Positions 1,006-14,261 of a stretch of DNA of 14,718 nucleotides are shown piece by piece. Position 1 is the first letter of the stretch; each line of letters starts with the position of its first letter. The stretch is from positions 1 through 14,718 of the forward strand of contig JBFXBG010000099.1 in NCBI GenBank assembly GCA_050183505.1, given 5' to 3'. The translations under genes and the position numbers were made by a program. Below the pieces are notes generated by a model that ran no database searches, had not been told where the DNA came from, and saw only the letters and a program-made list of their open reading frames with translations. This stretch comes from Gemmatimonadales bacterium. GTDB taxonomy: Bacteria > Gemmatimonadota > Gemmatimonadetes > Gemmatimonadales > GWC2-71-9.

Positions 1006-1177
1006 ACGATCCTCATCGACGGGTCACCTCGACGCGCGAAGCTAACGACCTGCGTGAGTCACCGCTCTAAAGTAAGAAATGTACGACCGACGAGCAATAG
1101 ATTTTTTCGGATTCTTGGCACGAAATTTCAAACGGAAGGACCGATCGGGGGGAAGCCGGATGGATGGAAGGCCCGCG
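1006..1177 (-). promoter_or_regulatory. Relatively AT-rich spacer between the folA stop and the Ddl-like start. Probable promoter/leader for the ligase gene.
   Basis: Locally low G+C (ctctaaagtaagaaatgtacgaccgacgagcaatagattttttcggattcttggcacgaaatttcaaacgg). Minus-strand TTGAAA...(17)...GAAAAA and TTGCTC...(17)...TACTTT are weak sigma70-like candidates. None is convincing. Confidence 0.3.
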
Positions 1178-1213
1178 TCAGCCTTCCGTCTTTCCATCCT
1201 TCCGTCGTTCCAC
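1166..1213. other. Hairpin GGAAGGC-N8-GCCTTCC enclosing the folA stop codon, followed by CTTCCGTC-type tandem octamers within the folA 3' coding end
   Basis: ggatggatggaaggcccgcgtcagccttccgtctttccatccttccgtcgttccacc. The folA stop (tca at 1178-1180) lies in the loop. Confidence 0.35.
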
Positions 1214-1693
1214 CCGCTCATAGGTCCGGAAGGTGAACGAATGCTCGTGCCGTTCGTCCGCCGGGTGGAAGCGCTCGGCGGTCAGGACCCAGTCGGCAGG
1301 TTCGAAGTCGGGGAAGGTGGTATCGCCCGGGACCCGGGCGTGCACGACGGTGAGCTCCAGCCGGTCGGCCACCGGCAGGGCGGCACGGTACAGCTCGCCG
1401 CCGCCCAGGACGAAGACCAGCTCGGCCGGCCGGGCCAGCGCCAGGGCAGCGGGAAGGTCCCGGGCCACCTCGACCCCGGCGGGATGGAACCGGGGGTTGC
1501 GGGAAACCACGATGCACCGGCGCTCGGGAAGCGGCTTGCCCACCGACTGCCAGGTCTTCCGGCCCATGATCACGGTGTGGCCCGTGGTCATGGCCTTGAA
1601 CCGCCGCAGGTCGTCCGGGAGGTGCCAGGGCAGGTCGTTCTCCCGGCCGATCACCCCGTTCTCGGCCACCGCGGCGACCAGGCTGACGATCAT
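1178..1693 (-). CDS. folA: Dihydrofolate reductase
   Basis: 171 aa. [48 protein letters not shown]...LGGGELY matches the DHFR signature region. Overlaps thyA by 4 nt (ATGA), the classic thyA-folA arrangement. Confidence 0.95.
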
Positions 1694-2484
1694 ACCGCGA
1701 TGGCGGCGGGGATCCGGGGGTGGGGCGAGTAGTTCTCCAGGGTGAAGTCCTCGAACTGGAAATCGAACAGGGACGTCACCCCCGGATTGAGCCGCAGGGT
1801 GGGCAGGGGGCGGGGATCCCGGGTCAACTGCAGCCGGGCCGCCTCGAGGTGGTTCTGATAGAGGTGGGCATCCCCGAAGGTATGGATGAACTCACCCGGC
1901 TCGAGCCCGCTCACCTGGGCCACCATCATGGTCAGGAGCGAGTAGGAGGCGATGTTGAACGGAACGCCCAGGAATACATCGGCGCTCCGCTGATACAACT
2001 GGCAGGAGAGGCGGCCGTCGGCAACGTAGAACTGGAAGAGGGCATGGCAGGGAGCCAGCGCCATCGCGGGGATCTCGGCGACGTTCCAGGCGCTGACGAT
2101 AAGCCGCCGGCTGACGGGGTCGGTCCGGATCTGGTCGAGGACCAGCCTGATCTGATCGATGTGCCGGCCATCGGGCGCGGGCCAGGAACGCCACTGCCGG
2201 CCGTAGACCGGACCCAGGTCGCCCGACTCATCCGCCCATTCATCCCAGATCGTCACGCCGTGATCGTTGAGATACCGGACGTTGGTATCCCCCTTGAGGA
2301 ACCACAGCAGCTCGTAGATGATCGACTTGAGATGGAGCTTCTTGGTGGTGACCAGCGGGAATCCCCGGGCCAGATCGAACCGCATCTGGTGGCCGAATAC
2401 GCTCAGGGTCCCCGTCCCGGTACGGTCGGCCCTGGGCCGGCCCTGATCCAGGATGTGGCGCATGAGGGAGAGGTACTGGCGCAT
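1690..2484 (-). CDS. thyA: Thymidylate synthase
   Basis: 264 aa. [85 protein letters not shown] is near-identical in motif content to ThyA, including the active-site PCH. Confidence 0.97.
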
Positions 2485-2521
2485 GGGACTAATCTAAGGC
2501 GATGCCGGGGAATTGCAGTAT

Positions 2522-2666
2522 GGGATGATTGGGTGATTGGATGATTGGGGATTGGATGATTTGGTAGACCGCGGCCTTCCGCGAGGACTGCGCACCTCGC
2601 CAGCGTGCAAACCATGACCAATCATCCAATCCCCAATCATCCAATCACCCAATTCCAAATCATCCC
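2522..2666. repeat. Intercistronic inverted-repeat element A (TGATTGGA/GGATTGG octamer type). Arms about 2522-2564 and 2618-2666, roughly 90% complementary. A 53-nt centre contains the mini-hairpin GCGAGG-N8-CCTCGC.
   Basis: Read directly. Left arm gggatgattgggtgattggatgattggggattggatgatttgg. Right arm ccaatcatccaatccccaatcatccaatcacccaattccaaatcatccc. The right arm contains the oxidase stop codon. The left arm ends about 37 nt before the thyA ATG. Confidence 0.85.
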
Positions 2667-4291
2667 TTGTCCTCTCCCGCCAACCCCAGCCGGTCCGTTC
2701 GGTAGCCGCCTCTCTTCTCGATCTCCCGCAGGGCAGCCGCGATGTCGTCCGGAATCGGGACGCTCCGGATCCCGGCCTTGAGGTCCGAAACCGGTTCCCG
2801 GGCGTCGGGCAGCATGATCCCCGGGTTGAAGATCCCGGCCGGATCGAAGGCGTCCTTCACCCGGCGGAACAGGCCCATCATCTCCGGCCCGTAGATCCCC
2901 TCCAGATACCTGGCCCGGAGACGGCCGGTGCCATGCTCTCCGGACGGCACCCCGCCGAGGCCGGCCACCAGGCGGGTGACCGAGTCCAGCAGGCGGGCGG
3001 CGTCGTCTTCCCATCCGGGTCGAGTGATATCCGGCAGGATGTTCACGTGGACGTTGCCGTCTCCGGCGTGTCCGAAGATCACGACCGGTATCTCCAGCTC
3101 CGCCGCCGCCTGGCGGACCCCGGCGATGTACTCACCGGTGCGCTGGACCGGGACGCAGCCGTCTTCGATGACCTGAAGCGAGCGTCGGTCCGGCGGGAGA
3201 TCGGCGATGATCGGGCTCGCGGCGTGGCGCAGAGCCCAGAGGCGGCGTTCCTCCTCCGGGGTGATGGCCGTTTCGACGTCGCTCGCCAGGGTGCGCAGCC
3301 GTCGGACGGCGTCACCCACGACTCCCCGGATGGTCCGTGGGTCGGACCCTTCGAACTCGACCAGGAGAATCACCTGACCCGGCAGGCCGGCCACCTCCGC
3401 GGCATGGCCGGGTGAGGCACGGACCAGGTCCAGGAAGCTGCGGTCGAGCAGTTCAAGGGCGGAAGGGCCGAGCGGCAGCAGCGCCTCGACCGCCTCGGTC
3501 AGATCGTCGAGCCGGGCCAGAGACACACGAAGGCCGGCGCGGACTTCGGGGACCCGATCCAGCCGCCATTCGACCTCGGTGACGAAGCCCAGGGTTCCCT
3601 CGGCCCCGATCACCAGGTCGATCAGGTCCCCCGATGCCAGGTATTCCCCCAGAGCATAGCCCGAGGAGTTCTTGCGTACCCGGGGGGTGCGCTGTGCGAC
3701 GAGGGACCGGCCGGCCTGAATGAACGGGTCGGCTTCCGCGAACCGCGCCGTTGCCCCGGAGGCGGGCACCGGCTCGCCCCGGGCCAGTCGGATGGTCTCG
3801 GCGTCGGCGGTCACGAGGGTAAGCGCCGTGACCCACCTGCGCACGCTGCCGTACTTGACGCTGCGGGCACCGGCCGCGTTGGTCGAAACGGCGCCGCCGG
3901 CCGTCGCAAAGGCGCTGCTGGAAGGATCCGGTGGGAGGCGAAGGCCGTCGCGTCCGGCGGCGGTGTTGAGGTCCGCCAGGCGGATGCCGGGGGAGGTGGC
4001 CGCGGAGCGGCGGGCCGGGTCGACGCGCAGCCGGGGGCCGTCCATGGCGGTCAGATCGACCATGACGCCGCCGCCGATATTGTCGCCCGGCATCGCACTG
4101 CCGGCGCCGCGGGGAATCAGCTGTTTGCCCGCCCGGCCTGCCCAGCCGGTCAGGACCAGTACGTCGCTGGTGTCGGCCGGGACGGCGACGGCTTCGGGCA
4201 CCACCCGGTAGATCCCGCCGCCTTCGGCGTAAGCGGCGCGTGCCCGCAGGTCTGTCCGGAACGGGCCGCGGAACCCGGGTGGTGAGGTCAT
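2660..4291 (-). CDS. FAD-linked oxidase, GlcD / D-lactate dehydrogenase family (FAD-binding PCMH domain plus C-terminal oxidase domain)
   Basis: Motifs PRGAGS..GGGV (FAD-binding) and GEHGTG near the C-terminus. Preferred start is ATG at 4289-4291 (MTSPPGF...). It is preceded by the GAAAGGTAAG leader motif shared with other starts in the window. The ORF-track start, GTG at 4378, would add an R/G-rich low-complexity extension overlapping the upstream gene by 32 nt. Confidence 0.85.
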   Translation of the reverse strand: MTSPPGFRGPFRTDLRARAAYAEGGGIYRVVPEAVAVPADTSDVLVLTGWAGRAGKQLIPRGAGSAMPGDNIGGGVMVDLTAMDGPRLRVDPARRSAATSPGIRLADLNTAAGRDGLRLPPDPSSSAFATAGGAVSTNAAGARSVKYGSVRRWVTALTLVTADAETIRLARGEPVPASGATARFAEADPFIQAGRSLVAQRTPRVRKNSSGYALGEYLASGDLIDLVIGAEGTLGFVTEVEWRLDRVPEVRAGLRVSLARLDDLTEAVEALLPLGPSALELLDRSFLDLVRASPGHAAEVAGLPGQVILLVEFEGSDPRTIRGVVGDAVRRLRTLASDVETAITPEEERRLWALRHAASPIIADLPPDRRSLQVIEDGCVPVQRTGEYIAGVRQAAAELEIPVVIFGHAGDGNVHVNILPDITRPGWEDDAARLLDSVTRLVAGLGGVPSGEHGTGRLRARYLEGIYGPEMMGLFRRVKDAFDPAGIFNPGIMLPDAREPVSDLKAGIRSVPIPDDIAAALREIEKRGGYRTDRLGLAGEDKG

Positions 4292-4346
4292 GTAATGAAA
4301 GGTAAGCGGAGCGCCAGAGGCAGATTGCCGCCCCGGTCCTCCGGTC

Positions 4347-4892
4347 CTACCTCGCTCCGGTCTCTCCGTACTCCTCACCCAGCCGCTTGAGAATCTGAGT
4401 CAGCTTCAGGGCCACGGGATGATCGGGAGGGAGCGGCCGGTCCAGTTCGCGGCCGGGCAGGGAGGGATCAGCCAGAAGGCGGTAGACGCCTTCGAGCGTG
4501 ACGATACTGTGGCCCGCCTGGGCCGGGTCGATCCAGGCCCGGACACGGACAACCCTCTGGCCCAGGGGGCGGGCGGTGGTCCGGGCATAGCCGGTGGTAT
4601 CGAACCAGGGAGTCTCGATGTACCCGTCCCGGGTCACGACCTTCTCCACCGGAATGCTGTCGGCCTTGAGCGCATCGGCCAGGGTCGTGGTGGCCGCGGC
4701 GATGGTCAGGTGAACCGGCAGCTGCGTCGCCGCCGGCAACGGCTCGAACGCCGGCCGGGACGTGTACGGCTGACACGCGAGAAGAAGGAGGAGCGGAAGG
4801 ATGCGCCGGAAAGGCAGACGGACCCCGGTGCCCGTCCTGGAGGGGGGGGCTTTCCGCCTTTCCGCCTTTCCGTCCTCCCGCCTAGTCCTCAT
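4347..4892 (-). CDS. Putative lipoprotein with a twin-arginine-like signal: long charged n-region, FRRILPLLLLLAC, lipobox LLAC
   Basis: 181 aa. ATG at 4890-4892. The RR motif is followed by a hydrophobic stretch and a lipobox Cys. The mature part has no motif I recognise. The N-terminal coding region contains a C8 tract and three tandem GCGGAAAG octamers, as read on the minus strand. Confidence 0.65.
   Translation of the reverse strand: MRTRREDGKAERRKAPPSRTGTGVRLPFRRILPLLLLLACQPYTSRPAFEPLPAATQLPVHLTIAAATTTLADALKADSIPVEKVVTRDGYIETPWFDTTGYARTTARPLGQRVVRVRAWIDPAQAGHSIVTLEGVYRLLADPSLPGRELDRPLPPDHPVALKLTQILKRLGEEYGETGAR
4842..4882. repeat. G8 homopolymer (4842-4849) followed by tandem octamers CTTTCCGC x3 plus one degenerate copy (4850-4882)
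   Basis: aggggggggctttccgcctttccgcctttccgtcctcccgcc. On the minus strand it lies in the first 15 codons of the lipoprotein ORF (K A P P S ... RREDGKAERRKA), directly after the DUF2231 stop. Confidence 0.8.
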
Positions 4893-5568
4893 GTGGCGGG
4901 GTTCCGGGGGCGTGGGTGTGGCCGCCCGCCGTGGGTGCGGCGGCGGTGCTGTCCGGCATCCCGTCCACCATGCTGTCGGTCATGGCCGCAGTGGAATCGG
5001 GCATCGCCTGGACCGGTGCGCCGTCGTCATGGTGTTCCTCTCCCTCCTCGTGCTCGTGCCCGAGCGCCCGGTTCCGGACCTCGGCCTCCAGTTCGGCCGT
5101 CGGGATCCCGGCGGCGTGATCGAAGACCATCTCGCCGCCCTCGCGCCCGGTGGCGACCAGGAACCCGGCACCGGCGAGCGCCAGGACCAGCGCGGCGATG
5201 CGCTCTCCGCCGGCCATGGCCCGGCTCCGGAGCAGGTGCCAGAGGGTAAGGAAGCCGAAGATGCCGAGGGTCACGAAGGCCAGTTTCTCATGGGTTTCCA
5301 TGATTTCGTGAATGGCCTGGCCATGCTCGATGGCGTCTTCGGCGCGCAGGCCGGAAAGGACGGCCACTCCGGCGCCGATCGTCCCCAGAATCAGGACCCA
5401 GAACGAGGCGGAGCGGAAGCTTTCCCGGTTCGTCAGGATCGCCAGAACCTCGAAGATGACGAAGGCGGCGAGCAGTGCCGAGGGCAGGTCGTTGAGCATG
5501 GCATGCAACCGGACCGCATCATATCCCAGAAACGAAGCAGCCGCTTCGCCGCCGTGGAGGAAGAGCAT
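4882..5568 (-). CDS. Integral membrane protein, probably DUF2231-like (about 4 TM helices), with an acidic His-rich C-terminal tail
   Basis: 228 aa. Hydrophobic segments LLAAFVIFEVLAIL, FWVLILGTIGAGVAVLSGL, LAFVTLGIFGFLTLWHLL and IAALVLALAGAGFLV. Tail HEHEEGEEHHDD...GHTHAPGTPPHED. An internal MPDSTAA(M/A) duplication. A GGAGTT Shine-Dalgarno lies about 11 nt upstream. The stop overlaps the next gene's start by 11 nt. Confidence 0.7.
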   Translation of the reverse strand: MLFLHGGEAAASFLGYDAVRLHAMLNDLPSALLAAFVIFEVLAILTNRESFRSASFWVLILGTIGAGVAVLSGLRAEDAIEHGQAIHEIMETHEKLAFVTLGIFGFLTLWHLLRSRAMAGGERIAALVLALAGAGFLVATGREGGEMVFDHAAGIPTAELEAEVRNRALGHEHEEGEEHHDDGAPVQAMPDSTAAMTDSMVDGMPDSTAAAPTAGGHTHAPGTPPHED

Positions 5569-5606
5569 GGAATCGAACTCCGATCAGGTGTTGAGAGACG
5601 ATTAGT

Positions 5607-5729
5607 GTATTGGATGATTGGAGGATTGGATGATTGGATGTTTGACCGATCTCATCGTGTGGGAGCGCCCACCGGTGAGCCCGAATCATCTCCCGATCAT
5701 CCAATCCCCAGTCCTCCGATCACTGATCC
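5607..5729. repeat. Intercistronic inverted-repeat element B (ATGATTGG/GGATTGG type). Arms about 5607-5645 and 5683-5729.
   Basis: gtattggatgattggaggattggatgattggatg ... gaatcatctcccgatcatccaatccccagtcctccgatcactgatcc. It sits between the hbd stop (5731) and the DUF2231 start (5568). Confidence 0.8.
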
Positions 5730-5730
5730 A

Positions 5731-6618
5731 CTAGAGGCCCAGGTCCACCGGGGCCGGGGGATTCTGGGAATAGTCGTAGAACCCCTTGCCGCTCTTGCGG
5801 CCGAAGAGGCCCGCCAGGTACATCCGCTTGAGCAGCGGCGGAGGAGCGTAACGGGATTCCCGGTATTCCGCAAACATGATCTCGGCGATCTTGTAGGTCG
5901 TGTCGTTGCCCACGAAATCGAGCAGGGTAAACGGCCCCATGGGGTAGCCGCAGCCGAGCTTCATGCCGTTGTCGATGTCGACAATCGAACCGACGCCGTG
6001 TTCCAGTGCCCGGATGGCGTCCAGCAGGTAGGGGACCAGCAGCAGGTTCACGATGAACCCGGAGTTGTCCTTGGCGGCCACGGCCTGCTTTCCGAGTCCC
6101 CGGGCGAACTTCATCGCGCGATCGAAGGTCTCCGGCGTGGTGGTCACGGTCCGGACCACTTCCACCAGTTGCATCAGGGGCACCGGGTTGAAGAAGTGCA
6201 GCCCGACGAACCGATCGGGCCGTCTGGTTGAGGCGGCCATGGCCGCGATCGTAAGGCTCGACGTGTTGGAGGCGAAGATCGTATGGACCGGGCACATGGC
6301 GTCGAGCTGCTTCCAGAGGTCGTTCTTGAGCTCGAGGTCTTCGGTGATCGCCTCGATGATGATGTCGCAGTCCTTCAGGGCGCCGACATCGGTCACGAAA
6401 CTCAGCCGCCCCAGCGTGGCGTCCTTGTCGGCCGCCTGGAGTTTGCCCTTTTCGACGAACTTCTCCAGTGATTTGACGATGCCGGCCTTGCCCTTGTCGA
6501 GCGGGGCCTGCGCCACTTCCCGCACGATAGTGGTATGTCCCGCAGCGGCGGCGACCTGGGCAATGCCGCTGCCCATCAGGCCGCAACCGAGAACGCCGAC
6601 ACTCTTGATATCTTGCAT
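5731..6618 (-). CDS. hbd: 3-hydroxybutyryl-CoA / 3-hydroxyacyl-CoA dehydrogenase (NAD-binding)
   Basis: 295 aa. N-terminal Rossmann motif VGVLGCGLMGSGIA. The remainder is typical of the 3HCDH N- and C-domains (..IIEAITEDLELK...FFNPVPLMQLVEVV..). The other minus frame, 5720..6586, is a shadow. Confidence 0.95.
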   Translation of the reverse strand: MQDIKSVGVLGCGLMGSGIAQVAAAAGHTTIVREVAQAPLDKGKAGIVKSLEKFVEKGKLQAADKDATLGRLSFVTDVGALKDCDIIIEAITEDLELKNDLWKQLDAMCPVHTIFASNTSSLTIAAMAASTRRPDRFVGLHFFNPVPLMQLVEVVRTVTTTPETFDRAMKFARGLGKQAVAAKDNSGFIVNLLLVPYLLDAIRALEHGVGSIVDIDNGMKLGCGYPMGPFTLLDFVGNDTTYKIAEIMFAEYRESRYAPPPLLKRMYLAGLFGRKSGKGFYDYSQNPPAPVDLGL

Positions 6619-6619
6619 G

Positions 6620-6728
6620 AAAAGAACTCCGATGCTGAGGGTAAGGGTCAGGGGTCAGAAGGGGGCGTGGAGGCTGCTGCGCCCGGCCGTCCTGATGCCT
6701 GATCGCCGGTTCCTGATCCCCGGTTCGA
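6620..6728. repeat. Purine-rich/pyrimidine-rich imperfect inverted repeat G (GTAAGGG/GTCAGGG units against CCTGAT units) between the hypothetical-protein stop and the hbd start
   Basis: catgaaaagaactccgatgctgagggtaagggtcaggggtcagaagggggcg ... ccgtcctgatgcctgatcgccggttcctgatcccc. Complementarity is weaker than in elements A-D. Confidence 0.5.
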
Positions 6729-7559
6729 TTACTTCAGGGCCTTTCGTACTTCTTCCGCAATCAGCCCCATGATGCCGGCCTTCTCCGGCAACTGATGACT
6801 GGGCTTGACGACGCCGCGCTCCAGGTGATCCAGCGGCCGTTCGAGTCCCATCTGCACCCGCGCGGCGACCGGCCGGTAGCGCCGGCCGATTCCCCAGGCG
6901 ATGCCGAAGCCGAAAGGCAGGGGCGCGACGGCAATGAGCAGGAAGGGAGACATCACCGCCAGCGCCGCGCCGGCGGCGACGCCTGCCAGGCTGGCCGCCG
7001 CGGCGCCCCCGATGAAGCTCCCCCGCTCCTTCCTGACCGAGGCGGTGAGCAACACGTTGCAATAGCCCGGCTCCAGGGGGACGATGGTGGCGTTGACCGC
7101 GTCGGTACGGGCCAGCATGAACGGCTTGCGACCGCCGCCCAGCGCCGCCGCCGAGCGCCGCATGGCGGCCTGAAAGCCGCGCAGCGGCTCCCAGGCGAGC
7201 CGGCCCGACTGCTGGCGGGTGATGGTGAGCAGTTCGTTCTCTTCCATCCAGCGCAGCAGACCGTCCTGAATCTCCTCGAGTGTGCCCCGCACGACGCGCT
7301 GGGCGGACACCTGCCCGGGACCGATGGCCCGGTCCCAGAATCCCTCCCCGCCTCCCAGATCCACCCTGGATGTCTCCTCCAGCAACGCCTGCTGCAGATA
7401 CCCCTGCGGTATGCCGACCTCGGTTCCCAGCCGGATCACCTCGTCCGGGGTGAGCACGTCTCCGATGTCCCGCGAGCCGGCCTGCAGCTCCGCGGCGCGC
7501 TTGATGATTCGCTCAAGCGCGGCGCGGTCGATCCGGGCGGGAAGAGGAGAAGGCGGCAT
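6729..7559 (-). CDS. Hypothetical membrane-anchored protein. About 170 aa of soluble N-terminal domain, then two glycine-zipper-like TM helices and a short basic tail.
   Basis: 276 aa. ATG at 7557-7559. The hydrophobic region FIGGAAAASLAGVAAGAALAVMSPFLLIAVAPLPFGFGIAWGIG has small-xxx-small repeats. No family recognised. Lies immediately downstream of the SPFH gene on the same strand. Confidence 0.65.
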   Translation of the reverse strand: MPPSPLPARIDRAALERIIKRAAELQAGSRDIGDVLTPDEVIRLGTEVGIPQGYLQQALLEETSRVDLGGGEGFWDRAIGPGQVSAQRVVRGTLEEIQDGLLRWMEENELLTITRQQSGRLAWEPLRGFQAAMRRSAAALGGGRKPFMLARTDAVNATIVPLEPGYCNVLLTASVRKERGSFIGGAAAASLAGVAAGAALAVMSPFLLIAVAPLPFGFGIAWGIGRRYRPVAARVQMGLERPLDHLERGVVKPSHQLPEKAGIMGLIAEEVRKALK

Positions 7560-7560
7560 G

Positions 7561-7702
7561 AAAAGCGAGTAAGGGGTAAGAAGTGAGAAGCAAGAAGGGG
7601 GGAACGCCGCGGTGCGGGGTCGGGGGCCGATCTCCAGCCGTCTCCTCCGTTCACCGGTTCCGGACCCCGGCTACTTCACCCCCCCTTCTTCTCCGACTTC
7701 TC
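7561..7702. repeat. Purine-rich/pyrimidine-rich inverted repeat F (GTAAGAAG/GTGAGAAG units). Left arm 7561-7602. Right arm about 7674-7702, inside the last codons of the SPFH gene.
   Basis: aaaagcgagtaaggggtaagaagtgagaagcaagaagggggg against cttcacccccccttcttctccgacttctc. The centre carries the short palindromes ccgcggtgcgg and ccggttccgg. Confidence 0.55.
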
Positions 7703-8533
7703 GGGAACCCGGAACTGGGGCAGCGCGAGCGACGCGTCCGGGGGTGAGAGTTTGGCCGGCTCCCCCGCCTGTTCCGGGCCGCCGGCCCGGCCTTCCATGG
7801 CCTTGATGAACGGCTTGAACAGTTCGATCGGAATCGGAAATATCGTGGTCGAGTTGTTCTCCGCCGCGATCTCGGTCACCGTCTGCAGGTAGCGCAGCTG
7901 GATGGCGCTCGGCTCGCGGGCGAGAGTATGCGCCGCCTCCGCCAGCGTCTGGGAGGCCTGCAGTTCCCCCTGGGCCGCGATGACCTTGGCGCGGCGCTCC
8001 CGCTCGGCTTCCGCCTGCCGGGCCATGGCGCGCTTCATTTCGGTCGGCAGGTCGACGTCCTTCACCTCGACCGCGGAAACCTCGATGCCCCAGGCGTCGG
8101 TGCGCTCGTCGATGATCCGTTTCAGGATGCCGTTGATCTTCTCCCGGTCGGCCAGCAGCTCGTCCAGCTCCACTTCACCCAGGACCGAGCGAAGGGTGGT
8201 CTGGGCCAGCTGGCTGGTGGCATAGCGGTAGTCTTCAATTTCGATGATCGCTTTTCCGGGCTCGCTCACCTTCATGTACAGGACGGCGTTCACCTTGACC
8301 GAGACGTTGTCCCGCGTGATCACGTCCTGCGGCGGGATGTCCAGCGCCATGATCCGCAGGCCCACCCGGCGCATGTGGGCGAATCCGGCGGGCACGAACA
8401 CCAACCCGGGGCCCTTGGTCCCCCAGAAGCGGCCCAGAAAGAAGGTGACGCCCCGTTCATACTGCTTGATGATCCGCAGGCTGGCGAAGGAGTAGGCCAC
8501 CGCGCCGGCCAGAAGGGCAAGCATGACTTCCAT
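7676..8533 (-). CDS. SPFH / Band-7 domain protein (stomatin/prohibitin/HflKC family, QmcA/YbbK-like)
   Basis: 285 aa. N-terminal TM segment, then [16 protein letters not shown].., [23 protein letters not shown]..., and a coiled-coil [20 protein letters not shown]. This is typical SPFH architecture. A GGGGAGTTTCC leader lies 8 nt before the ATG. Confidence 0.93.
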
Positions 8534-8545
8534 AGGAAACTCCCC

Positions 8546-8639
8546 GGATTGAGGGATTGCGGATTGCGGGATCGAGAGACCGGGATCGCGAAGCCGGGCA
8601 ATCCGCGGAATCCCTCAATCCCCCGATCCCTCAATCCCC
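8546..8639. repeat. Intercistronic inverted-repeat element C (GGATTGAG/GGATTGCG octamer type), nearly contiguous arms
   Basis: ggattgagggattgcggattgcgggatcgagagaccgggatcgcg aag ccgggcaatccgcggaatccctcaatcccccgatccctcaatcccc. The right arm contains the thiolase stop codon. The left arm ends 12 nt before the SPFH ATG. Confidence 0.8.
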
Positions 8640-9839
8640 GTACGCTTCCACGATGACCGCCGCGCCCTGTCCGCCGCCGATGCAGGCGCTTCCCAGTCCG
8701 TACCGGAGTCCGCGGCGCCTGAGGGCGTACAGCAGGTGCAGCGTGATCCGGGTGCCGCTGGCGGCAAGCGGGTGGCCGATCGCGATGGCGCCGCCATCGA
8801 CGTTGGTCCGTGCGCGGTCCAGCCCCAGTTCCTTTTCCACCGCCAGGTACTGGGCCGAGAAGGCCTCATTCACCTCAACCAGGTTCATGTCCTTGATCGA
8901 CATGCCGGCCCGGGCCAGCGCCTTGGTGGCGGCCGGGGCCGGTCCGATCCCCATGTACTTCGGTTCCACCCCGGCGACTGCCCAGGCCACGAGCCGGCCG
9001 AGCGGCTTCACCCCGGCGGGGACGGCGTCTTCCCCCGCGATCACGACGGCGGCACCGCCATCGCAGATTCCGGAGGCGTTCCCCGCGGTGACGACTCCGT
9101 CCTTCTTGAAATACGGCGGCAGTTTGGCCAGAGCTTCCGCCGTCGTGTCCGGCCGCATGTGTTCGTCCTTGCCCCAATCCACCATCTGGCGGCTCTTCCG
9201 GTCCTTGACCGGCACCGGCGCGATCTCGTCGGCAAAGGCGCCCGAGGCCCACCCGTCCCGGGCCCGGGTCTGGCTGGTCAGGGCGTACTCGTCGACTGCC
9301 GCCCGGGGGATCTGATACTTGTCCGCCAGGTTCTCCGCCGTTTCGGCCATGGAGAATCCGCACTGGGGGTCCTTGAGCGACTCCCAGAGCAGGTCTTCGA
9401 ACGGCGGCGCCGGGCCAAGCCGCAGGCCCCACCGGGCGCCTCGTACGACGTGCGGCGCCTGGCTCATCGATTCCGCGCCGCCGGCCAGCACGATCTTCGA
9501 TTCACCCAGCAGGATCTGCTGAGCGCCCTGGATGATGCTCTCGAATCCGGAACCGCAGAGGCGGTTGACCGTGACCGCCGGCGTTTCCGTGGGCAGGCCG
9601 GCCCGGAGAGCGACATGCCGGGCCAGGTAGATGGCATCGGCCGAGGTCTGCAGCGCGTTGCCGAAGACCACGTGGTCGATGGCGTCCGGCTTCACCCCGG
9701 CCTGGGCCAGCGCGGCCTTGGAGGCGAACACGCCGAGCTCGGTGGCGGTGAAATCCTTGAGTGTCCCCCCAAAGCTGCCAAACCCGGTGCGGGCGCCGGA
9801 GAGGAACACCACGTCCCGGGACTGTCCTTGAGTCTTCAT
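8631..9839 (-). CDS. Acetyl-CoA C-acetyltransferase (thiolase II)
   Basis: MKTQGQSRDVVFLSGARTGFGSFGG..NRLCGSG (active-site Cys)...GNASGICDGGAAVV..AIGHPLAASG..CIGGGQGAAVIVE. ATG at 9837-9839 is preferred over the ORF-track TTG at 9854, which adds only MPQNT. Confidence 0.95.
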   Translation of the reverse strand: MKTQGQSRDVVFLSGARTGFGSFGGTLKDFTATELGVFASKAALAQAGVKPDAIDHVVFGNALQTSADAIYLARHVALRAGLPTETPAVTVNRLCGSGFESIIQGAQQILLGESKIVLAGGAESMSQAPHVVRGARWGLRLGPAPPFEDLLWESLKDPQCGFSMAETAENLADKYQIPRAAVDEYALTSQTRARDGWASGAFADEIAPVPVKDRKSRQMVDWGKDEHMRPDTTAEALAKLPPYFKKDGVVTAGNASGICDGGAAVVIAGEDAVPAGVKPLGRLVAWAVAGVEPKYMGIGPAPAATKALARAGMSIKDMNLVEVNEAFSAQYLAVEKELGLDRARTNVDGGAIAIGHPLAASGTRITLHLLYALRRRGLRYGLGSACIGGGQGAAVIVEAYGD

Positions 9840-9863
9840 TGTATTCTGTGGCAAGAGTTTAGA

Positions 9864-9882
9864 CGCGTTCAGAACGAACGCG
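9864..9882. promoter_or_regulatory. Perfect 7-bp inverted repeat CGCGTTC-N5-GAACGCG in the thiolase 5' region. Candidate operator.
   Basis: acgcgttcagaacgaacgcg lies 10-28 nt upstream of the TTG/ATG of the thiolase gene. A G8 tract (9897-9904) lies a further 15 nt upstream. Confidence 0.3.
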
Positions 9883-9951
9883 AAATATGCCCGGAAGGGG
9901 GGGGCGATTCACGGAAACCGGTCTGGGGGTGCTGCGGGAGGGGAAGGGGAT

Positions 9952-9978
9952 CCGGCCGGCGGTTACCCCGCCGGCCGG
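9952..9978 (-). terminator. GC-rich perfect hairpin (11-bp stem CCGGCCGGCGG, loop TTACC) 10 nt downstream of the secreted-protein stop. Candidate intrinsic terminator or RNA-stabilising stem without a U-tract.
   Basis: ccggccggcgg ttacc ccgccggccgg read directly. It is followed by the thiolase upstream region, so it plausibly separates two transcription units. Confidence 0.5.
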
Positions 9979-9988
9979 ACCGGACCGC

Positions 9989-10405
9989 TTACTCGTGCGG
10001 TTCCTTGGGAACGGGCCGCTTCTCGTAGAGGGTCAGGGTTGCGGTGTTGCCGGCGGGGAAATCCCGCACCCGGATCTCGTACATGGCCGTTTCGTAGGGC
10101 CGGAGGTCCCAGAGGGTCCCGCCGGTGACCGAACTTCCGGGCACCGTGGTGTTCAGGTATGGCTGCTGAACCGAGCTCTTGACCGGCGACACGGTGAAAC
10201 GAACCCGGCCGTAGTTGGTTGACAGCCGGTACTGGTGGCCCTGAACGAGTTCCACCCGGAGGTATTCCCCACTGCCTCCGGTAAAGCTCTGGGCGATAAT
10301 CGGAACGTAGGTGCTGTCCTGAGAGGCCGCCGCGGCGTCCTTCTGGGCGGCGGCCGGTACCGCGATCAATGACGCAAACGCAAGTGTCGCAATGGCTTTC
10401 CGCAT
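9989..10405 (-). CDS. Small secreted protein of unknown function (Sec signal peptide MRKAIATLAFASLIAVPAAAQ, mature part about 117 aa)
   Basis: The strongest Shine-Dalgarno in the window is GGGGAGGT, 5 nt before the ATG. Noticeably more A/T-ending codons than neighbouring genes. A perfect 11-bp hairpin lies 10 nt after the stop. Confidence 0.8.
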   Translation of the reverse strand: MRKAIATLAFASLIAVPAAAQKDAAAASQDSTYVPIIAQSFTGGSGEYLRVELVQGHQYRLSTNYGRVRFTVSPVKSSVQQPYLNTTVPGSSVTGGTLWDLRPYETAMYEIRVRDFPAGNTATLTLYEKRPVPKEPHE

Positions 10406-10437
10406 ATATACCTCCCCGACTTCGTTTCAGACGATGC

Positions 10438-11502
10438 CTAGCCCACACTCTCCAGGAGGGCGGCGGCCACCTCGTGGGTCGTGTTCGATCCGCCAATATC
10501 CGGGGTGGTCGGACCATCATCCAGGACCCGTCTGACCGCGTCCTCCAGCCTTCTGGATGCACCAGGATGTCCCAGCGACTCAAACAGGAGGGCGCCGGTC
10601 AGCACCGTGGCCATCGGGTTGGCGACGCCTTTGCCGGCGAGAGGGGGAGCCGAGCCGTGAACCGGCTCGAAGAGGCCGGCCCGGCCGGGATGCAGGTTGG
10701 CGCTCGCCGCCACGCCCAGGCCGCCGACCAGCCCGGCCCCGAGGTCGGAGAGGATATCCCCGTAGAGGTTGTTGGCGACGATGACCTGATACCGGTCGGG
10801 ATCCCGTACCAGGTCCATCGCCAGGGCGTCGACGTACCGATGCTCCCGGGCGATTTCGGGAAACTGTTCGCCGATCTCGGCGAAGATCCGTCCCCAGATC
10901 CGCTGAAACGGTACCGCGTTCGACTTGTCGCACAGGGTTATCCGGGAGCGACCCCGGCGCGCGGCCCATTCGAACGCCGCCATGATGATGCGGTGGACGC
11001 CCTTGCGGCTGTGAATCTCCTCCGAGATCTGTTTCTCGTCCGCGGTGCCCTCGGCCTCCGCCCGGCCGAATCCCTGATACTGGCCCTCGGTGTTCTCTCG
11101 AAAAATGGCGATGTCGATATCGTGTTTCCCGGCCAGGGGCGTGAGCCTCGGGTGCAGCAGCTGGACCGGCCGGAAGTTGATGTACAGGTCCAGCCGGAAC
11201 CGGAGTCCCAGCAGGATGTCCCGGGCGTGCTCATTGTCCGGTACCCGGGGATCGCCCAGCGCTCCGAGCAGGATGGCGTCGACGTCGTCCCGGAGATGCC
11301 GGAAGGCATCCTCGGGCAGGGTCACGCCGGTCTGGAGGTAGTGATCCGCCGAGTAGGGGAGCATTTCGAGGGCGAGCTGGACGTCCTCGAGGGAAGCCGC
11401 CCGCTCGATCACCGGCAGAGCCGCATCGATGACTTCAGGACCGATCCCGTCACCGGGGATCACCGCGATGTGTAGTGTGGGCATCAGAAGGGTAAGAGGC
11501 AT
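10438..11502 (-). CDS. Isocitrate/isopropylmalate dehydrogenase family enzyme (3-isopropylmalate- or tartrate-dehydrogenase-like)
   Basis: HIAVIPGDGIGPEV N-terminus and the family signature NLYGDILSDLGAGLVGGLGVAASANL. An alternative start at the ATG ending at 11484 (MPTLHIAVIPGDGIG) fits family N-termini better than the ATG at 11502. Confidence 0.9.
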   Translation of the reverse strand: MPLTLLMPTLHIAVIPGDGIGPEVIDAALPVIERAASLEDVQLALEMLPYSADHYLQTGVTLPEDAFRHLRDDVDAILLGALGDPRVPDNEHARDILLGLRFRLDLYINFRPVQLLHPRLTPLAGKHDIDIAIFRENTEGQYQGFGRAEAEGTADEKQISEEIHSRKGVHRIIMAAFEWAARRGRSRITLCDKSNAVPFQRIWGRIFAEIGEQFPEIAREHRYVDALAMDLVRDPDRYQVIVANNLYGDILSDLGAGLVGGLGVAASANLHPGRAGLFEPVHGSAPPLAGKGVANPMATVLTGALLFESLGHPGASRRLEDAVRRVLDDGPTTPDIGGSNTTHEVAAALLESVG

Positions 11503-11603
11503 TCAGTGAGAGGTGAGAAGGACCGGTCAATGGCATGCCGCGCTGGGCGGAGCGACAAGGGTCCGGCGATTCCTTCCCGCTCCTTCTGTCTCACTTCTCA
11601 CTG
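11485..11603. repeat. Purine-rich/pyrimidine-rich inverted repeat E (GTAAGAGG/GTGAGAGG/TGAGAAGG units) between the zinc-ribbon gene stop and the dehydrogenase start
   Basis: cagaagggtaagaggcattcagtgagaggtgagaaggaccgg ... ccggcgattccttcccgctccttctgtctcacttctcactg. The right arm includes the stop codon at 11598-11600. The left arm includes both candidate start codons. Confidence 0.6.
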
Positions 11604-12455
11604 CTCGATTGGGTGTCCACAGGTCACGCAGAACTGCCAGCCGAGTTCGACCTCGCTGTCGCATCCGGGGCACTTGATGGACGACTGACTCTCCCCGCAG
11701 TGGGGGCAGAACTTGATGTCGCGCCGGGTGGGCAGGGAGCCGCCGCAGAAGGGACAGCGGCCGGGCGTACGCGGGGGCGGGCTCTCGGCAATGCCGCCGG
11801 CCGGAGGGTCTTCCATGGCAACGGGCTCGATGGTGGCACGGGTCCAGCGCACGGAATCGAGTGAGTCGGCGTCGTCGCGGGCCTGGTTGTCGGCCGTCTC
11901 GTGTTCCGGCGGAGCGAAGGCGGTCTCGGGGTCGGGACCGAGGGCGAAGGCGAGTCGATCGGTCGCCAGGATCAGGCTGGTCCCGCCCAGTTGTTCCAGG
12001 ATCCTGAGATCGGGATTGGGGCTGCCGGCTTCCGTGGCGAACGCTTCCTGGATGTCGGCCGGATCGGTACGCACGAATTTCCCCTCTCCGGCGCACAGCC
12101 GGAGGACCAGCATGTCGTAGTCCTCATTGCTGGCCAGACCCAAGGCGCGCCGATTGGTCCGGTAGGGGACGATCGTCTCGATGATCTCGCCGATCGGAAC
12201 CGGCCGGTGCAGCCGGGCCGGATCGATCGCGATGAGATTGTCGACCAGCCGGCGGAAGAATCGCTCGAGGTCGGTCACGGGCCGTGAGGGAACGGGGAAT
12301 CGATCGGTCGCTGCAATTTCCACTTCCTCGGGGCGTCCAGCAAGCGCCCGGACGGAACCTGTCTCGGCCGGTGCCGGGGTGAACTCAGCGTGCCTCCGCC
12401 AGCGGCAGGCGCTCGCCGGCAGCGAGCCGATCGGCGAGGACGTCGAAGGCGGCAT
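11598..12455 (-). CDS. Hypothetical protein with a C-terminal double zinc ribbon (four CxxC pairs) and an uncharacterised N-terminal domain
   Basis: C-terminus CPFCGG..(14)..CPHCGE..(6)..CPGCDS..(9)..CVTCGH. The ORF-track start at 12455 overlaps rnhA by about 70 nt, with a low-complexity N-terminus. An in-frame GTG at 12321-12323 is a plausible alternative start. The true start is uncertain. Confidence 0.6.
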   Translation of the reverse strand: MPPSTSSPIGSLPASACRWRRHAEFTPAPAETGSVRALAGRPEEVEIAATDRFPVPSRPVTDLERFFRRLVDNLIAIDPARLHRPVPIGEIIETIVPYRTNRRALGLASNEDYDMLVLRLCAGEGKFVRTDPADIQEAFATEAGSPNPDLRILEQLGGTSLILATDRLAFALGPDPETAFAPPEHETADNQARDDADSLDSVRWTRATIEPVAMEDPPAGGIAESPPPRTPGRCPFCGGSLPTRRDIKFCPHCGESQSSIKCPGCDSEVELGWQFCVTCGHPIEQ

Positions 12456-13014
12456 CGGGATCGTACTGCAGGTATTTCCCCCGCTCCCGCTGTACCTCCA
12501 GCCAGGCCGCGAAGCCCGACCCCACCGGCCCGGCGGAACTCTCCTGCCGGCGGGCCGCCCCGACGGCCAGGCTGTCGGCGTATTCGTTCTTGGGATGCCC
12601 CGCGTGGCCCCGGACCCAGGTCCACTGCACGTCGTGGGACCGGGCCGCCTCCACCAGCCGCTGCCAGAGTTCCAGGTTCTCTATGGTGCCGCCCTTCCGG
12701 CGCCAGCCCCGGGCCTGCCACGAGGGTACCCACTCCCGGATCCCCTTGACCAGATACTCCGAGTCGGAGACCATCAGCACCCGGAGCCGCCGGCCCCGGG
12801 CTGCCAGCGTCTCGAGCGCCAGGGCCGCCCCCGAGAGCGCCATCCGGTTGTTGGTCGTGGCCGGGGAATGAAGGAAGAGGTCCCGCCGCTGAACGCCGCT
12901 CCGGGTACGCAGCTCGATCAGTGCGCCCGCCCCGCCGGGGTTTTCGCCCTCGCGGCCGTTGCCGAGACAGCTCTCGTCGAGGTGGAGGACAGCAATGGGA
13001 TGTTGGACGGACAT
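12385..13014 (-). CDS. rnhA: Ribonuclease HI, with a C-terminal extension of about 55 aa
   Basis: MSVQHPIAVLHLDESCLGNG..GAGALI..TTNNRMALSGAALALE..VSDSEYLVKGIREWVPSWQARGWRRKGG..ENLELWQRL..VQWTWVRGHAGHPKNEYADSLA matches RNase HI end to end, including the DEDD catalytic positions. Start taken at ATG 13012-13014. The track's TTG at 13068 only adds a translation of the repeat element. Confidence 0.9.
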   Translation of the reverse strand: MSVQHPIAVLHLDESCLGNGREGENPGGAGALIELRTRSGVQRRDLFLHSPATTNNRMALSGAALALETLAARGRRLRVLMVSDSEYLVKGIREWVPSWQARGWRRKGGTIENLELWQRLVEAARSHDVQWTWVRGHAGHPKNEYADSLAVGAARRQESSAGPVGSGFAAWLEVQRERGKYLQYDPDAAFDVLADRLAAGERLPLAEAR

Positions 13015-13094
13015 TGAGGGATTGAGGGATTGAAGGATCGAGGGATTCGGCCGACCGGGCTCCCTCAATCCCTCAATCTATCAATCCCTCAATC
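13013..13094. repeat. Intercistronic inverted-repeat element D (GGGATTGA x4 octamer type), wedged exactly between two genes
   Basis: cattgagggattgagggattgaaggatcgagggattcgg ccgaccggg ctccctcaatccctcaatctatcaatccctcaatcc. The left arm begins with the reverse complement of the rnhA ATG. The right arm contains the phosphoesterase stop codon (tca at 13089-13091). Confidence 0.85.
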
Positions 13095-14261
13095 CAAGTA
13101 CATCGCAAACCCCTCCACCGCCTCCCCATCTTCTCCGACCTCCAGCACGCCCAGCCGGGTCCGGCCGTCCCGGAGCAGGTCGATGCGCATGAAGCCGGCG
13201 CGCGCCGAAGCGTAGAGGGTGTAGTCGCGATAGCCCGCCGGCCCCTCGTGTCCGAAGATGCCCGCGCCGCTCACCAGCTGGTAATGGACCCCGTCGAGCT
13301 TCAACACCTGCAGGTTGTGGTCGTGACCTGAAGCGTAGACCAGCGGCCGGTAGATCCGGAAGACCTGCTCCAGGCCGTCCCGGAGTTCCTGGTAGAGCGG
13401 GCCGGAGACATCCTGATTGGTGGCGCCGCCCTTGCGGAGGACCTTGTCGTACGATCCCACGATGGGCAGCGGGATCCAGAGCCAGGGGGCCAGCCGCCGG
13501 AGCGGGAAAAGGTGGGCCGTGAGCCCGTAGTAGCCGCCGTGTTCCGCCACGCTTTCCAGCGGGTGGTGGCCGGCGACGATGACAACCCGGTCACCGGCGT
13601 TGGCGAGCGCCGCCGCGAGGGAGTCGGCGATCTGATCGGGCGTGTCCGTGGGGCAGCCCGATCCGCCCACCGGCTTGGCGAACTCGTGGACCCACCACTG
13701 GGTGTCGAGGAAGACGAGCCGGAGACGCGGGCCCGGATCCCGCACCACCGGCCCGGGGCAGCCGCCGGCCGGGTACATCCGGACCAGCGGCGCCCCGACG
13801 CTGTCGATGAAGGCCGATTGCCGCCGGATGGCGTTCCAGCCGTCGCGGCCCATGCGTCCCCAGTCGTGGTTGCCGGGGATGAAGACGGTCGGAGTGCCGG
13901 TGCCGATTCCGACCGCGATCTGCGCCAGCAGCCTCCCGGAGGCCTCGGCGTAATCCTTCGCCTCGGGGGCCGGCAGCCCCGACGGGTAGAGGTTGTCGCC
14001 CAGAAAGACAATCAGGCGCCGGGTGGGAGCCGTCGAGGCGAGTCGCGCCAGGGCGCGAAGGACCGGCTCATCCGGGCCGGGTTCCCCGGCATCCCCGATG
14101 AGAAACACCGAGGTCTCGATCGCGGAATCTTCCGGAACCGGGACGAGCGATGGCGCCGGCCGCTGCGGGCCGCAGGCCGCGGCCCAGAGGCCGGCGAGCG
14201 CGACCGCCTGCCACCGGAATCCGCGGCGGCGGTTCAGCGCCACCGGTAGACCGTGAGCCAC
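13089..14261 (-). CDS. Calcineurin-like metallophosphoesterase, probable lipoprotein
   Basis: Metallophosphatase motifs GDAGEPG, GDNLY, GNHDW, GHHP and GHDH. N-terminal signal with a ...ALAGLWAAAC lipobox-like Cys. GTG start at 14261, or GTG at 14243, which would give a cleaner signal peptide. Confidence 0.88.
   Translation of the reverse strand: MAHGLPVALNRRRGFRWQAVALAGLWAAACGPQRPAPSLVPVPEDSAIETSVFLIGDAGEPGPDEPVLRALARLASTAPTRRLIVFLGDNLYPSGLPAPEAKDYAEASGRLLAQIAVGIGTGTPTVFIPGNHDWGRMGRDGWNAIRRQSAFIDSVGAPLVRMYPAGGCPGPVVRDPGPRLRLVFLDTQWWVHEFAKPVGGSGCPTDTPDQIADSLAAALANAGDRVVIVAGHHPLESVAEHGGYYGLTAHLFPLRRLAPWLWIPLPIVGSYDKVLRKGGATNQDVSGPLYQELRDGLEQVFRIYRPLVYASGHDHNLQVLKLDGVHYQLVSGAGIFGHEGPAGYRDYTLYASARAGFMRIDLLRDGRTRLGVLEVGEDGEAVEGFAMYLD

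Follow-up and report, generated by a model that had tools for sequence, protein, structure and literature searches.

A stretch of 14,718 nucleotides (nt) from a metagenome-assembled genome (MAG) of the Gemmatimonadota (Gemmatimonadales bacterium, GCA_050183505.1, contig JBFXBG010000099.1; hereafter the window) carries long imperfect stem-loops in many of the spacers that separate one gene's stop codon from the next gene's start codon. Judging from their sequences, these elements do not appear to be copies of a mobile element; they look like "hairpin microsatellites" that grew locally, with the upstream stop codon as anchor. Our preferred reading, to which we assign a probability of roughly 0.4, is that they arose in place by replication slippage and hairpin-templated copying, and that they act like enterobacterial REP elements as RNA stem-loops inside operons. 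The origin is reasonably supported; the function we infer. The window, a soil-bacterium (Gemmatimonadota) fragment, has a G+C content of 68%, and all of its genes lie on the minus strand.

Stem-loops in the spacers between genes

The preliminary description of the window listed seven spacers (A to G) as inverted repeats, suspected a degenerate eighth copy at 4292-4363, and placed such repeats at nearly every gene junction. For each spacer we aligned the first (5') half with the reverse-complemented second (3') half and set the score against those of 500 shuffles. The elements and candidates are given below, each spacer named with its upstream gene on the sense (minus) strand first, with paired positions and the number of shuffles that scored as well.

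A, 2522-2666, minus strand: FAD-oxidase to thyA spacer; octamers GGATGATT/GGGTGATT/GGGGATT facing their complement; arms 37/37, z=20.6, 0/500.
B, 5607-5729, minus strand: 3HCDH (3-hydroxyacyl-CoA dehydrogenase) to DUF2231 spacer; left arm (ATTGGATG)4.5, right arm its degenerate complement; arms 42/50, z=7.6, 0/500.
C, 6620-6728, minus strand: spacer from unk276, a 276-residue protein gene without assigned family, to 3HCDH; 7-nt words GATCAGG / CTGACCC; a doubtful member, with no significant inverted repeat (z=-0.1, 273/500).
D, 7561-7702, minus strand: Band7/SPFH to unk276 spacer; marginal; arms 32/38, z=2.9, 9/500.
E, 8546-8639, minus strand: thiolase to Band7 spacer; octamers GGATTGAG/GGATTGCG; arms 22/22, z=9.7, 0/500.
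F, 11485-11603, minus strand: zinc-ribbon to isocitrate/isopropylmalate dehydrogenase (IDH) spacer; arms ~11504-11519 / 11589-11603; 14/15 core, z=5.7, 0/500.
G, 13013-13095, minus strand: metallophosphoesterase to RNase H spacer; (ATTGAGGG)4, a 15-nt loop, (CCCTCAAT)4; arms 29/33, z=14.1, 0/500.
DHFR element, 1147-1214, minus strand: 3' end of the DHFR gene, absent from the preliminary list; arms 23/27, z=7.1, 0/500.
Candidate, 4807-4883, minus strand: (CTTTCCGC)4 array paired with a short complement; it lies upstream of the putative lipoprotein gene or at its 5' end, where gene calls differ; marginal (10/500).

Inverted repeats were thus upheld for A, B, E, F and G and were marginal for D. 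On exact alignment the complementarity of C dissolved, as did that of the supposed degenerate copy at 4292-4363, which 107 of 500 shuffles matched; most of the others held. Two further long spacers (12279-12384 and 9840-9988) had no inverted repeat by the same test. The repeat search found perfect 34-nt arms in A (2528-2561/2620-2653), 33-nt arms with 88% complementarity in G, and 23 nt with 78% complementarity in the DHFR element. Of the twelve spacers in the window that are at least 50 nt long, seven contain one of the supported elements, namely A, B, D, E, F, G and the DHFR element. This corresponds to ~0.5 elements per kb, with about half of the junctions occupied; the claim of occupancy at nearly every junction was too strong.

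RNA folding of the sense strand ranked the elements as the arm test did. The z-score was -10.3 for A (-93 kcal/mol, with a GC-rich inner hairpin in the loop), -8.3 for G (-58.8 kcal/mol), -4.8 for B, -3.2 for E, -2.9 for the DHFR element, -2.0 for F, -1.0 for D, +0.4 for C and +0.7 for the 4807-4883 candidate. Antisense folds gave z-scores of -9.7 for B, -0.4 for C and -1.7 for F.

The repeats are not assembly artefacts, because independent assemblies carry the same sequence without differences inside the elements. DNA of 99.9-100% identity occurs in a second MAG (GCA_050248135.1) and in Logan contigs, and the two assemblies that we compared differ at 5 positions, 0 of them within elements. 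One Logan contig (SRR27751816, equivalent to window 1218-2557) stops partway through the left arm of element A and opens with 30 nt that match the right arm; the inverted repeat thus interrupts short-read assembly.

Tandem words and unrelated loops

The arms were said to consist of tandem 7-8-nt units, purine-rich ones facing their complement, and this holds for four elements, whose octamers have a GATTG core. By Tandem Repeats Finder (TRF) and autocorrelation, A, E and G have a significant 8-nt period in both arms and B in its left arm, as do the right arms at 1182-1214 and 4850-4883; TRF reported period 8 with 89% matches in B, 85% in both arms of G, and 80% in the 4807-4883 array. GATTGNNNGATTG occurs 11 times against 0.04 expected by chance. 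Clear tandem 8-nt units are confined to the four GATTG-type elements. The second of the two proposed subfamilies is much weaker than claimed, with a unit of 7 nt and not 8: period 7 reached significance in just two arms, the left one of D (p=0.02) and the right one of C (p=0.004), and F, with just two GTGAGAG/GTGAGAA units, had no significant periodicity.

The preliminary description also took the elements for a dispersed family of related copies, of the REP/BIME, ERIC or MITE kind. The central parts of the seven listed elements have no similarity to one another (|z|<1.5 in all 21 pairs), and since the loops are mutually unrelated, the elements are not copies of a REP-, ERIC- or MITE-like master element. 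What they have in common is the architecture and a 5-nt core word, GATTG in four of them, with a GTRAG-type word common to three; arm lengths, unit variants and periods differ. The corresponding junctions of related genomes, described below, are empty or differently worded, which also counts against the family interpretation. A search of Rfam 15 (E<=1) placed no family on the elements at gathering score; its matches were miRNA-precursor models at 22-36 bits, against gathering scores of 80-100, and are generic long hairpins. Of the seven elements, just two contain a canonical G-quadruplex (G4) motif (G3+N1-7 x4): E (8612-8639, minus strand) and C (6639-6665, plus strand). A G4 reading was set aside for this reason.

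Anchoring on the upstream stop codon

For the DHFR element and six of the seven listed spacers, the stem-loop span takes in the upstream gene's stop codon. In four of them a repeat unit supplies this stop as its TGA, at 2660-2662 (A), 8631-8633 (E, first unit), 11598-11600 (F) and 13089-13091 (G, first unit). In the DHFR element, the (CCTTCCAT)n array spans the last DHFR codons, and the stop (1178-1180) is closely followed by the array's complement GGATGGATGGAAGG. The next start codons sit -15 to +28 nt from the 3' base of the stem, and in E a Shine-Dalgarno-like GGGGAG follows that base. In G, the RNase H start (13012-13014) stands at the 3' base of the stem, directly opposite the stop across the helix; in the RNA fold the stop codon pairs with the three bases immediately before this start.

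These hairpins are not ordinary terminators. A terminator consensus scan found 7 sites in the window against 6.3 expected from shuffles, with one weak site touching an element, and no T-tract; short T runs (T3-T4) follow C, D and E. Nor did sigma-70-type promoter consensus sequences occur at the elements beyond shuffle level. In D and G there is no room for a promoter, because the start codon abuts or lies inside the stem.

A promoter-like conserved motif was found upstream of the thiolase gene only. The sequence C(G/T)(C/T)TTATATTTC lies ~45 nt upstream of the thiolase start at window 9882-9892 (minus strand), and its ATATT is invariant in seven Gemmatimonadota loci (the window and, in the relatives introduced below, ~7870 in L123, ~7795 in L125, ~7905 in L127, ~4710 in L129, ~7765 in L130 and ~5340 in L131). 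It is probably a -10-like promoter element. Its invariance suggests a promoter at this place, with E, D, C and B then falling within a single transcription unit that starts there. In L129 the motif falls in the N-terminal extension of the called open reading frame (ORF), which suggests that the thiolase start site was mis-called.

The same junctions in related genomes

To place the elements in evolutionary context we compared six syntenic Gemmatimonadota loci (L123, L125, L127, L129, L130 and L131). Gene order is kept in all six: RNase H - zinc ribbon - IDH - x - thiolase - Band7 - unknown - 3HCDH ... FAD oxidase - thyA - DHFR - ddl. Spacer lengths at three junctions were as follows.

Band7 to unknown: 116 nt in the window (D); -1, 3, 0, 2, 6 and 1 nt in the relatives.
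Zinc ribbon to IDH: 113 nt in the window (F); 28, 18, 4 and 9 nt in relatives; 99 nt in L125, with a hairpin of GGGATT-like words.
Thiolase to Band7: 97 nt in the window (E); 15, -1 and 13 nt in relatives; 109 nt in L125 (GGGATTTT/GGGACTCT words), 82 nt in L129 (GATTAGC heptamers), and 125 nt of ordinary GC-rich structure in L130.

Hairpins have therefore been gained at junctions that are tight in related genomes, and have been remade there in other words. The encoded proteins have equal lengths in the window and the relatives, so the elements lie strictly between native stop and start codons. The overlap or 0-6-nt spacing of the same genes in relatives implies an operon, and the genes of the window are presumably co-transcribed.

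Two elements of the window draw one arm from the gene itself. The sense-strand 5' arm of D (7679-7702) is the coding tail of Band7 (...EKSEKKGG*), and its complementary heptamer arm, which reads GTAAGGG GTAAGAA GTGAGAA GCAAGAA on the plus strand, precedes the next start codon. The 5' arm of the DHFR element is likewise a native Lys/Glu-rich coding tail with the complementary arm downstream, and the FAD oxidase to thyA junction of L123 repeats this arrangement. Insertion cannot account for a native coding tail as one arm; reverse-complement copying of the gene end can.

A Logan contig (SRR27751815, equivalent to window 6481-8225) from a strain 98.8% identical to the window has a junction C of 71 nt with fewer words. 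This difference in length between strains was counted in favor of growth in place. The contig is a mosaic, identical through Band7, D and most of unk276 and diverging from ~6845, with a 3HCDH gene that is 86% identical; junction C sits at the recombination breakpoint. Because the flanking gene is only 86% identical, this junction represents a divergent allele and not a clean slippage event. In the search for close relatives in which arm covariation could be followed, nothing was found beyond a 69% identical non-self homologue (of unk276), the sole 99% match being this mosaic.

Several relatives carry further repeat structures. L125 has elements at convergent junctions (3331-3455 and 13128-13217). 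In L123, (GGTCAAA)3, a loop and (TTTGACC)3 are followed by T7 (7733-7796), just upstream of the thiolase motif; this looks like a canonical intrinsic terminator. A 636-nt spacer of L127 (14831-15466) consists of a ~150-nt unit present three times, each with CGCAGATTA 9-10-mers, and includes an inverted TAATCTGCG array (15428-15455). The 175-nt unknown to 3HCDH spacer of L131 (8288-8462) is a long hairpin with ~21-nt perfect, non-tandem arms, so that this junction can also be filled in another manner.

The same architecture across phyla

The architecture is not confined to the window and its relatives. A scan for four GATTG-core units, with one genome per species, returned at least 119 loci from many phyla, and among the matches listed about one quarter of the GATTG arrays have a reverse-complement partner within 250 nt. 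We then applied a detector that calls a TRF array of period 6-9 and looks for a reverse-complement partner within 220 nt. In the 119 scan loci, the window and the syntenic relatives (968 kb, a sample already enriched for such repeats), it called 82 elements, of period 7 nt (34), 8 nt (36) or 9 nt (8). They occur in Gemmatimonadota, Acidobacteriota, Chloroflexota, Bacteroidota, candidate phyla radiation (CPR) bacteria and proteobacteria. Many are built from unrelated words; one Uhrbacteria locus has four elements made of four words. By this strict detector the window holds 0.27 elements per kb against 0.085 per kb in the repeat-enriched sample.

The elements of this sample have a fixed polarity. 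The G-rich arm lies 5' of the C-rich arm in 69 cases and 3' of it in 6, and the bias remains when GATTG elements are left out (22 against 3, p=1.6e-4). All window elements with significant arms (A, B, E, F, G and the DHFR element) have the G-rich arm first. The polarity holds on both strands (L004-L131 and the window), and hairpin stability alone does not explain it. Stops in all three frames are fourfold more frequent in 5' arms than in 3' arms (45 against 11, of 164). T-rich tails were not enriched after the 82 hairpins (12+8, against 7 in the control).

In the loci with supplied gene calls, elements occupied 14 of 38 co-directional, 2 of 10 convergent and 1 of 15 divergent spacers of at least 50 nt (Fisher p=0.05). 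A crude gene caller based on G+C at third codon positions was tried for the context of all 82 elements and dropped, as it was right for ~80% of known calls. In the open-access literature we found no paper describing this architecture across phyla, or its polarity.

Relation to known repeats

Over-represented heptamer repeats have been known since 1990, from the cyanobacterial STRR sequences, and were confirmed genome-wide in 2007; their origin and function are not understood. The cyanobacterial GGGGA(C/T)T heptamers are reportedly tandem and strongly intergenic, often beside ORF ends, with a few genome-specific words (Mazel et al. 1990). These are mostly unpaired direct arrays in low-GC genomes, unlike the elements of the window, and Nostoc has few inverted pairs (PMC4692102).

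The preliminary description did not recognize the window's family, and yet the kind is already on record, as convergent tandem heptamer pairs in the intergenic spacers of Xanthomonas. Rehm et al. 2015 (PMC4692102) counted 183-186 GGGAATC heptamer arrays per genome of X. campestris / X. axonopodis, usually of ~4 units, of which 70-75 convergent plus/minus pairs per genome are able to form stem-loops. About 90% of these arrays are intergenic, at a mean of 28 nt from the upstream ORF and mostly between co-directional genes; they are rare between divergent genes and variable between species, and no function was found (PMC4692102). The window elements resemble them in having tandem arrays of a 6-9-nt unit with at least 2-4 copies (weak in F and C), a second, convergent array on the opposite strand with the G-rich arm first, and an intergenic position near the upstream ORF's 3' end that is rare between divergent genes. 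They differ in that units are mostly 8 nt, several words coexist, the phylum is Gemmatimonadota, the stop typically lies within the first unit, and density is far higher, at about half of junctions. The G4 potential stressed in Xanthomonas (four or more G3 tracts) is also not a general property here, with canonical motifs in 2 of 7 elements. We conclude that the elements are an already recorded kind in a different version, with octamers, several words and extreme density.

REP elements of enterobacteria and pseudomonads are extragenic imperfect palindromes at gene 3' ends or between the cistrons of operons, whose mRNA stem-loops shield upstream segments from 3' exonucleases; within ~15 nt of a stop codon they can alter translation of the upstream gene. 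RAYT transposases spread them as copies of a conserved consensus of 20-40 nt that has a GTAG-type head. The REP, BIME and REPIN literature runs from Higgins 1982, Gilson 1984 and Newbury 1987 to Bertels and Rainey 2011 and Liang, Rudd and Deutscher 2015. The window elements share with REPs the extragenic position at 3' ends or between cistrons (operons being implied by the tight junctions of relatives) and a predicted mRNA stem-loop. They differ in lacking a 20-40-nt consensus, with only a 5-nt core in four of them, and in having tandem-repeat arms. No GTAG / GT[AG]G head stands at their arm ends, and the GTAAG/GTGAG of D and F are internal units. From MITEs they differ in their unrelated internal parts, the absence of a visible target-site duplication, and the native coding arm of D and the DHFR element.

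Intrinsic (Rho-independent) terminators have a short GC-rich stem, a 3-8-nt loop and a U-tract. The window elements share with them a stem-loop straight after the stop codon (and the L123 hairpin a T7 tail), but their stems have 30-60 pairs and are not especially GC-rich, loops span 15-80 nt, the U-tract is lacking, and relatives place them inside operons. The MIRUs of Mycobacterium tuberculosis (Supply et al. 1997) are reportedly tandem units in operon spacers that overlap the flanking stop and start codons; in contrast to our elements they are direct repeats of 46-101 bp with small ORFs and no hairpin architecture. The TAACTGA heptamer of marine Beggiatoaceae is amplified in intergenic spacers, often ending 1 nt before a start codon or overlapping the end of the upstream ORF (MacGregor 2015, PMC4679880). 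It carries stop codons in all frames, and the mechanism of its spread is not known (PMC4679880). Apart from a single inverted case among 170, those repeats are direct; they point toward the downstream start and form no hairpins (PMC4679880).

Origin and action

In the reading that we prefer, replication slippage at a gene's 3' end would amplify in tandem a purine-rich word of 7-8 nt, one that includes or adjoins the stop codon. A reverse-complement copy of the array would be placed 15-80 nt downstream, so that the whole stop-to-start spacer is predicted to fold as one stem-loop of -47 to -93 kcal/mol. Intrastrand template switching across the hairpin, selection for pairing, or the two together could create or preserve the complementarity of the arms. 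Within a polycistronic mRNA the stem-loop might act like enterobacterial REP/BIME elements: it would block 3'-to-5' exonucleases, would be a likely RNase III substrate, and would occlude the next start codon. In this way stability and translation of neighboring cistrons could be uncoupled without full transcription termination.

The arms of A and E speak for copying. They are complementary at 37/37 and 22/22 positions although successive units are just 0.64-0.69 identical, which had a chance of ~1e-6 and 5e-5, respectively, if the arms drifted independently. Because this complementarity exceeds the likeness among the units themselves, we counted it for arm copying. The location bias also resembles that of REPs and of the Xanthomonas arrays (7-8% divergent, PMC4692102).

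A number of points weigh against slippage, copying and a REP-like role. Sense RNA is not consistently more stable than antisense (7 against 6 elements, with B folding much better as antisense), so that nothing indicates selection on the mRNA strand over DNA, or any selection. Mirrored unit variants were present in 47 of 55 heterogeneous elements, and a null with the same detection threshold gave 0.80-0.86. As the null matches, we dropped this test as population evidence, and only A and E stand alone. Depletion from divergent spacers is not significant without the window (p=0.25). The terminator-like L123 heptamer hairpin with its T7 implies that some members may terminate transcription. Growth in place leaves unexplained why four junctions share a GATTG core, and the same holds for the polarity and for one genome's preference for a few words. 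Finally, co-transcription, the origin by slippage and template switching, and all effects at the RNA level are deduced, not observed.

A bolder reading, which we consider a long shot, is that these structures form a phylum-spanning and largely overlooked operon punctuation: stop-anchored stem-loops of tandem words and fixed polarity, written by a dedicated process and used to set cistron stability and translation. The process could be hairpin-templated synthesis or 3'-end addition at gene ends. The G-rich, stop-bearing arm would be 5' on both strands, and the stop could, for example, be set opposite the next start at the helix base, as in G.

The window is an unusually dense case in an uncultured phylum, and it comes with a natural comparison, since the same operon in relatives lacks or rewords the elements. 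Their gain and remaking in place, the tie to the stop codon and the strict polarity across phyla narrow the possible mechanisms. If REP-like mRNA punctuation were true, it would be relevant to operon annotation and expression prediction in many environmental lineages; the elements also break short-read assemblies.

Alternative explanations

The strongest rival is that the elements are a neutral or slightly deleterious mutational by-product of slippage and hairpin-templated copying, without function, that survives where it is harmless, past stops and outside promoters. We hold this to be almost as likely as the REP-like reading, because sense folds are no better than antisense ones and the mirrored-arm test is at its null. 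Words and occupancy change freely at the same junction between relatives, whose spacers of -1 to 28 nt argue that the elements are dispensable; C, 4292-4363 and 4807-4883 look like degenerate, decaying examples; and reporter work on the Xanthomonas arrays revealed no function (PMC4692102). A neutral origin sits less easily with the very high density (7 of 12 long spacers, ~0.5 per kb, and a clear excess over the enriched sample by the strict detector) and with the perfect arms of A and E despite their heterogeneous units. It would also need an added assumption, stop-codon seeding or survivorship, to yield a 69:6 polarity.

Transcription terminators or attenuators without a U-tract, which would end or weaken the upstream gene's transcript, are an unlikely alternative. 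Such a role would suit hairpins that begin at the upstream stop codon, their presence at the two convergent junctions of L125, the T7 of the L123 hairpin and the T3-T4 runs after C, D and E. It is at odds with the shuffle-level consensus scan (one weak site near an element), the lack of T-rich tails after the 82 hairpins, the absence of promoter room in D and G, and the operon implied by overlapping or 0-6-nt junctions in relatives, with a promoter-like motif before thiolase only.

We regard as improbable a DNA-level element, whether a cruciform, a G-quadruplex, a nucleoid- or topoisomerase-type binding array as in BIMEs, or a break-repair scar with G-rich units added to both 3' ends. The symmetry of the elements on both strands, with no sense bias, would fit, and G-rich strands that run 5' to 3' toward the center on both strands (69:6) are a property of the duplex and the geometry expected of 3'-end addition at a break. 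Genome-specific words (GATTG here, GGGAATC in Xanthomonas) would likewise fit a sequence-specific protein or template. Against this stand the scarcity of canonical G4 motifs (2 of 7 elements), the perfect mirrored arms of A, which independent addition at two ends would not be expected to give, and the co-occurrence of several unrelated words in one 15-kb stretch. We know of no binding protein.

A mobile REPIN- or MITE-like family spread in trans by a transposase such as RAYT, as the preliminary description suggested, would account for the shared GATTG and GTRAG-type words and for elements at junctions with zero spacing in relatives, but is highly improbable and was rejected given the unrelated loops (21 of 21 pairs), the differing arm lengths, unit variants and periods, the lack of a visible terminal motif or target-site duplication in the window elements, the native coding arms of D and the DHFR element, and the absence of a transposase from the window.

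Genes of the window and further observations

The genes of the window, in order of position, are listed below.

D-Ala-D-Ala-ligase-like gene, first in window order, minus strand.
DHFR, 1178-1693, minus strand.
Thymidylate synthase (thyA), 1690-2484, minus strand.
FAD-linked oxidase, then putative lipoprotein, then DUF2231, following thyA in window order, minus strand.
3-hydroxyacyl-CoA dehydrogenase (3HCDH), 5731-6618, minus strand.
276-residue protein without assigned family (unk276), 6729-7559, minus strand.
Band7/SPFH protein, 7676-8533, minus strand.
Thiolase, 8631-9839, minus strand; next in window order is a 138-residue protein.
Isocitrate/isopropylmalate dehydrogenase (IDH), 10438-11484, minus strand.
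Double-zinc-ribbon protein (DZR), between IDH and RNase H in window order, minus strand.
RNase H, 12385-13014, minus strand; followed by a metallophosphoesterase and an SdiA-regulated-like protein.

Homologues of unk276, a lineage-specific protein, are labelled Gemmatimonadota or Gemmatimonadales, the top non-self match being the 69% identical one mentioned above. The start of the putative lipoprotein gene is ambiguous (window 4739-4892): the public call gives 130 residues, and a longer ORF has a lipobox-like signal (RRILPLLLLLLAC). The (CTTTCCGC)4 array falls in this disputed 5' stretch.

The window has a single conventional 3' hairpin, a perfect GC-rich stem-loop (ccggccggcggttaccccgccggccgg) at 9952-9978, 10 nt past the stop of the 138-residue protein gene and ahead of the promoter-like motif of thiolase. 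It lacks both a T-tract and tandem units.

A conserved GAAAAAATCTATTG ... TTTCTTA(C/A)(T/C)TTAG motif lies in the long spacer that precedes the D-Ala-D-Ala-ligase-like genes, at window 1067-1108 (minus strand), L123 ~16985-17030 and L130 ~15385-15430. It had no match in Rfam and may be a promoter or leader element. L130 (14588-15346) also has thyX, and no DHFR, where the others have thyA-DHFR; alternation of thyX with thyA-folA is usual, and here it is seen at a conserved position.

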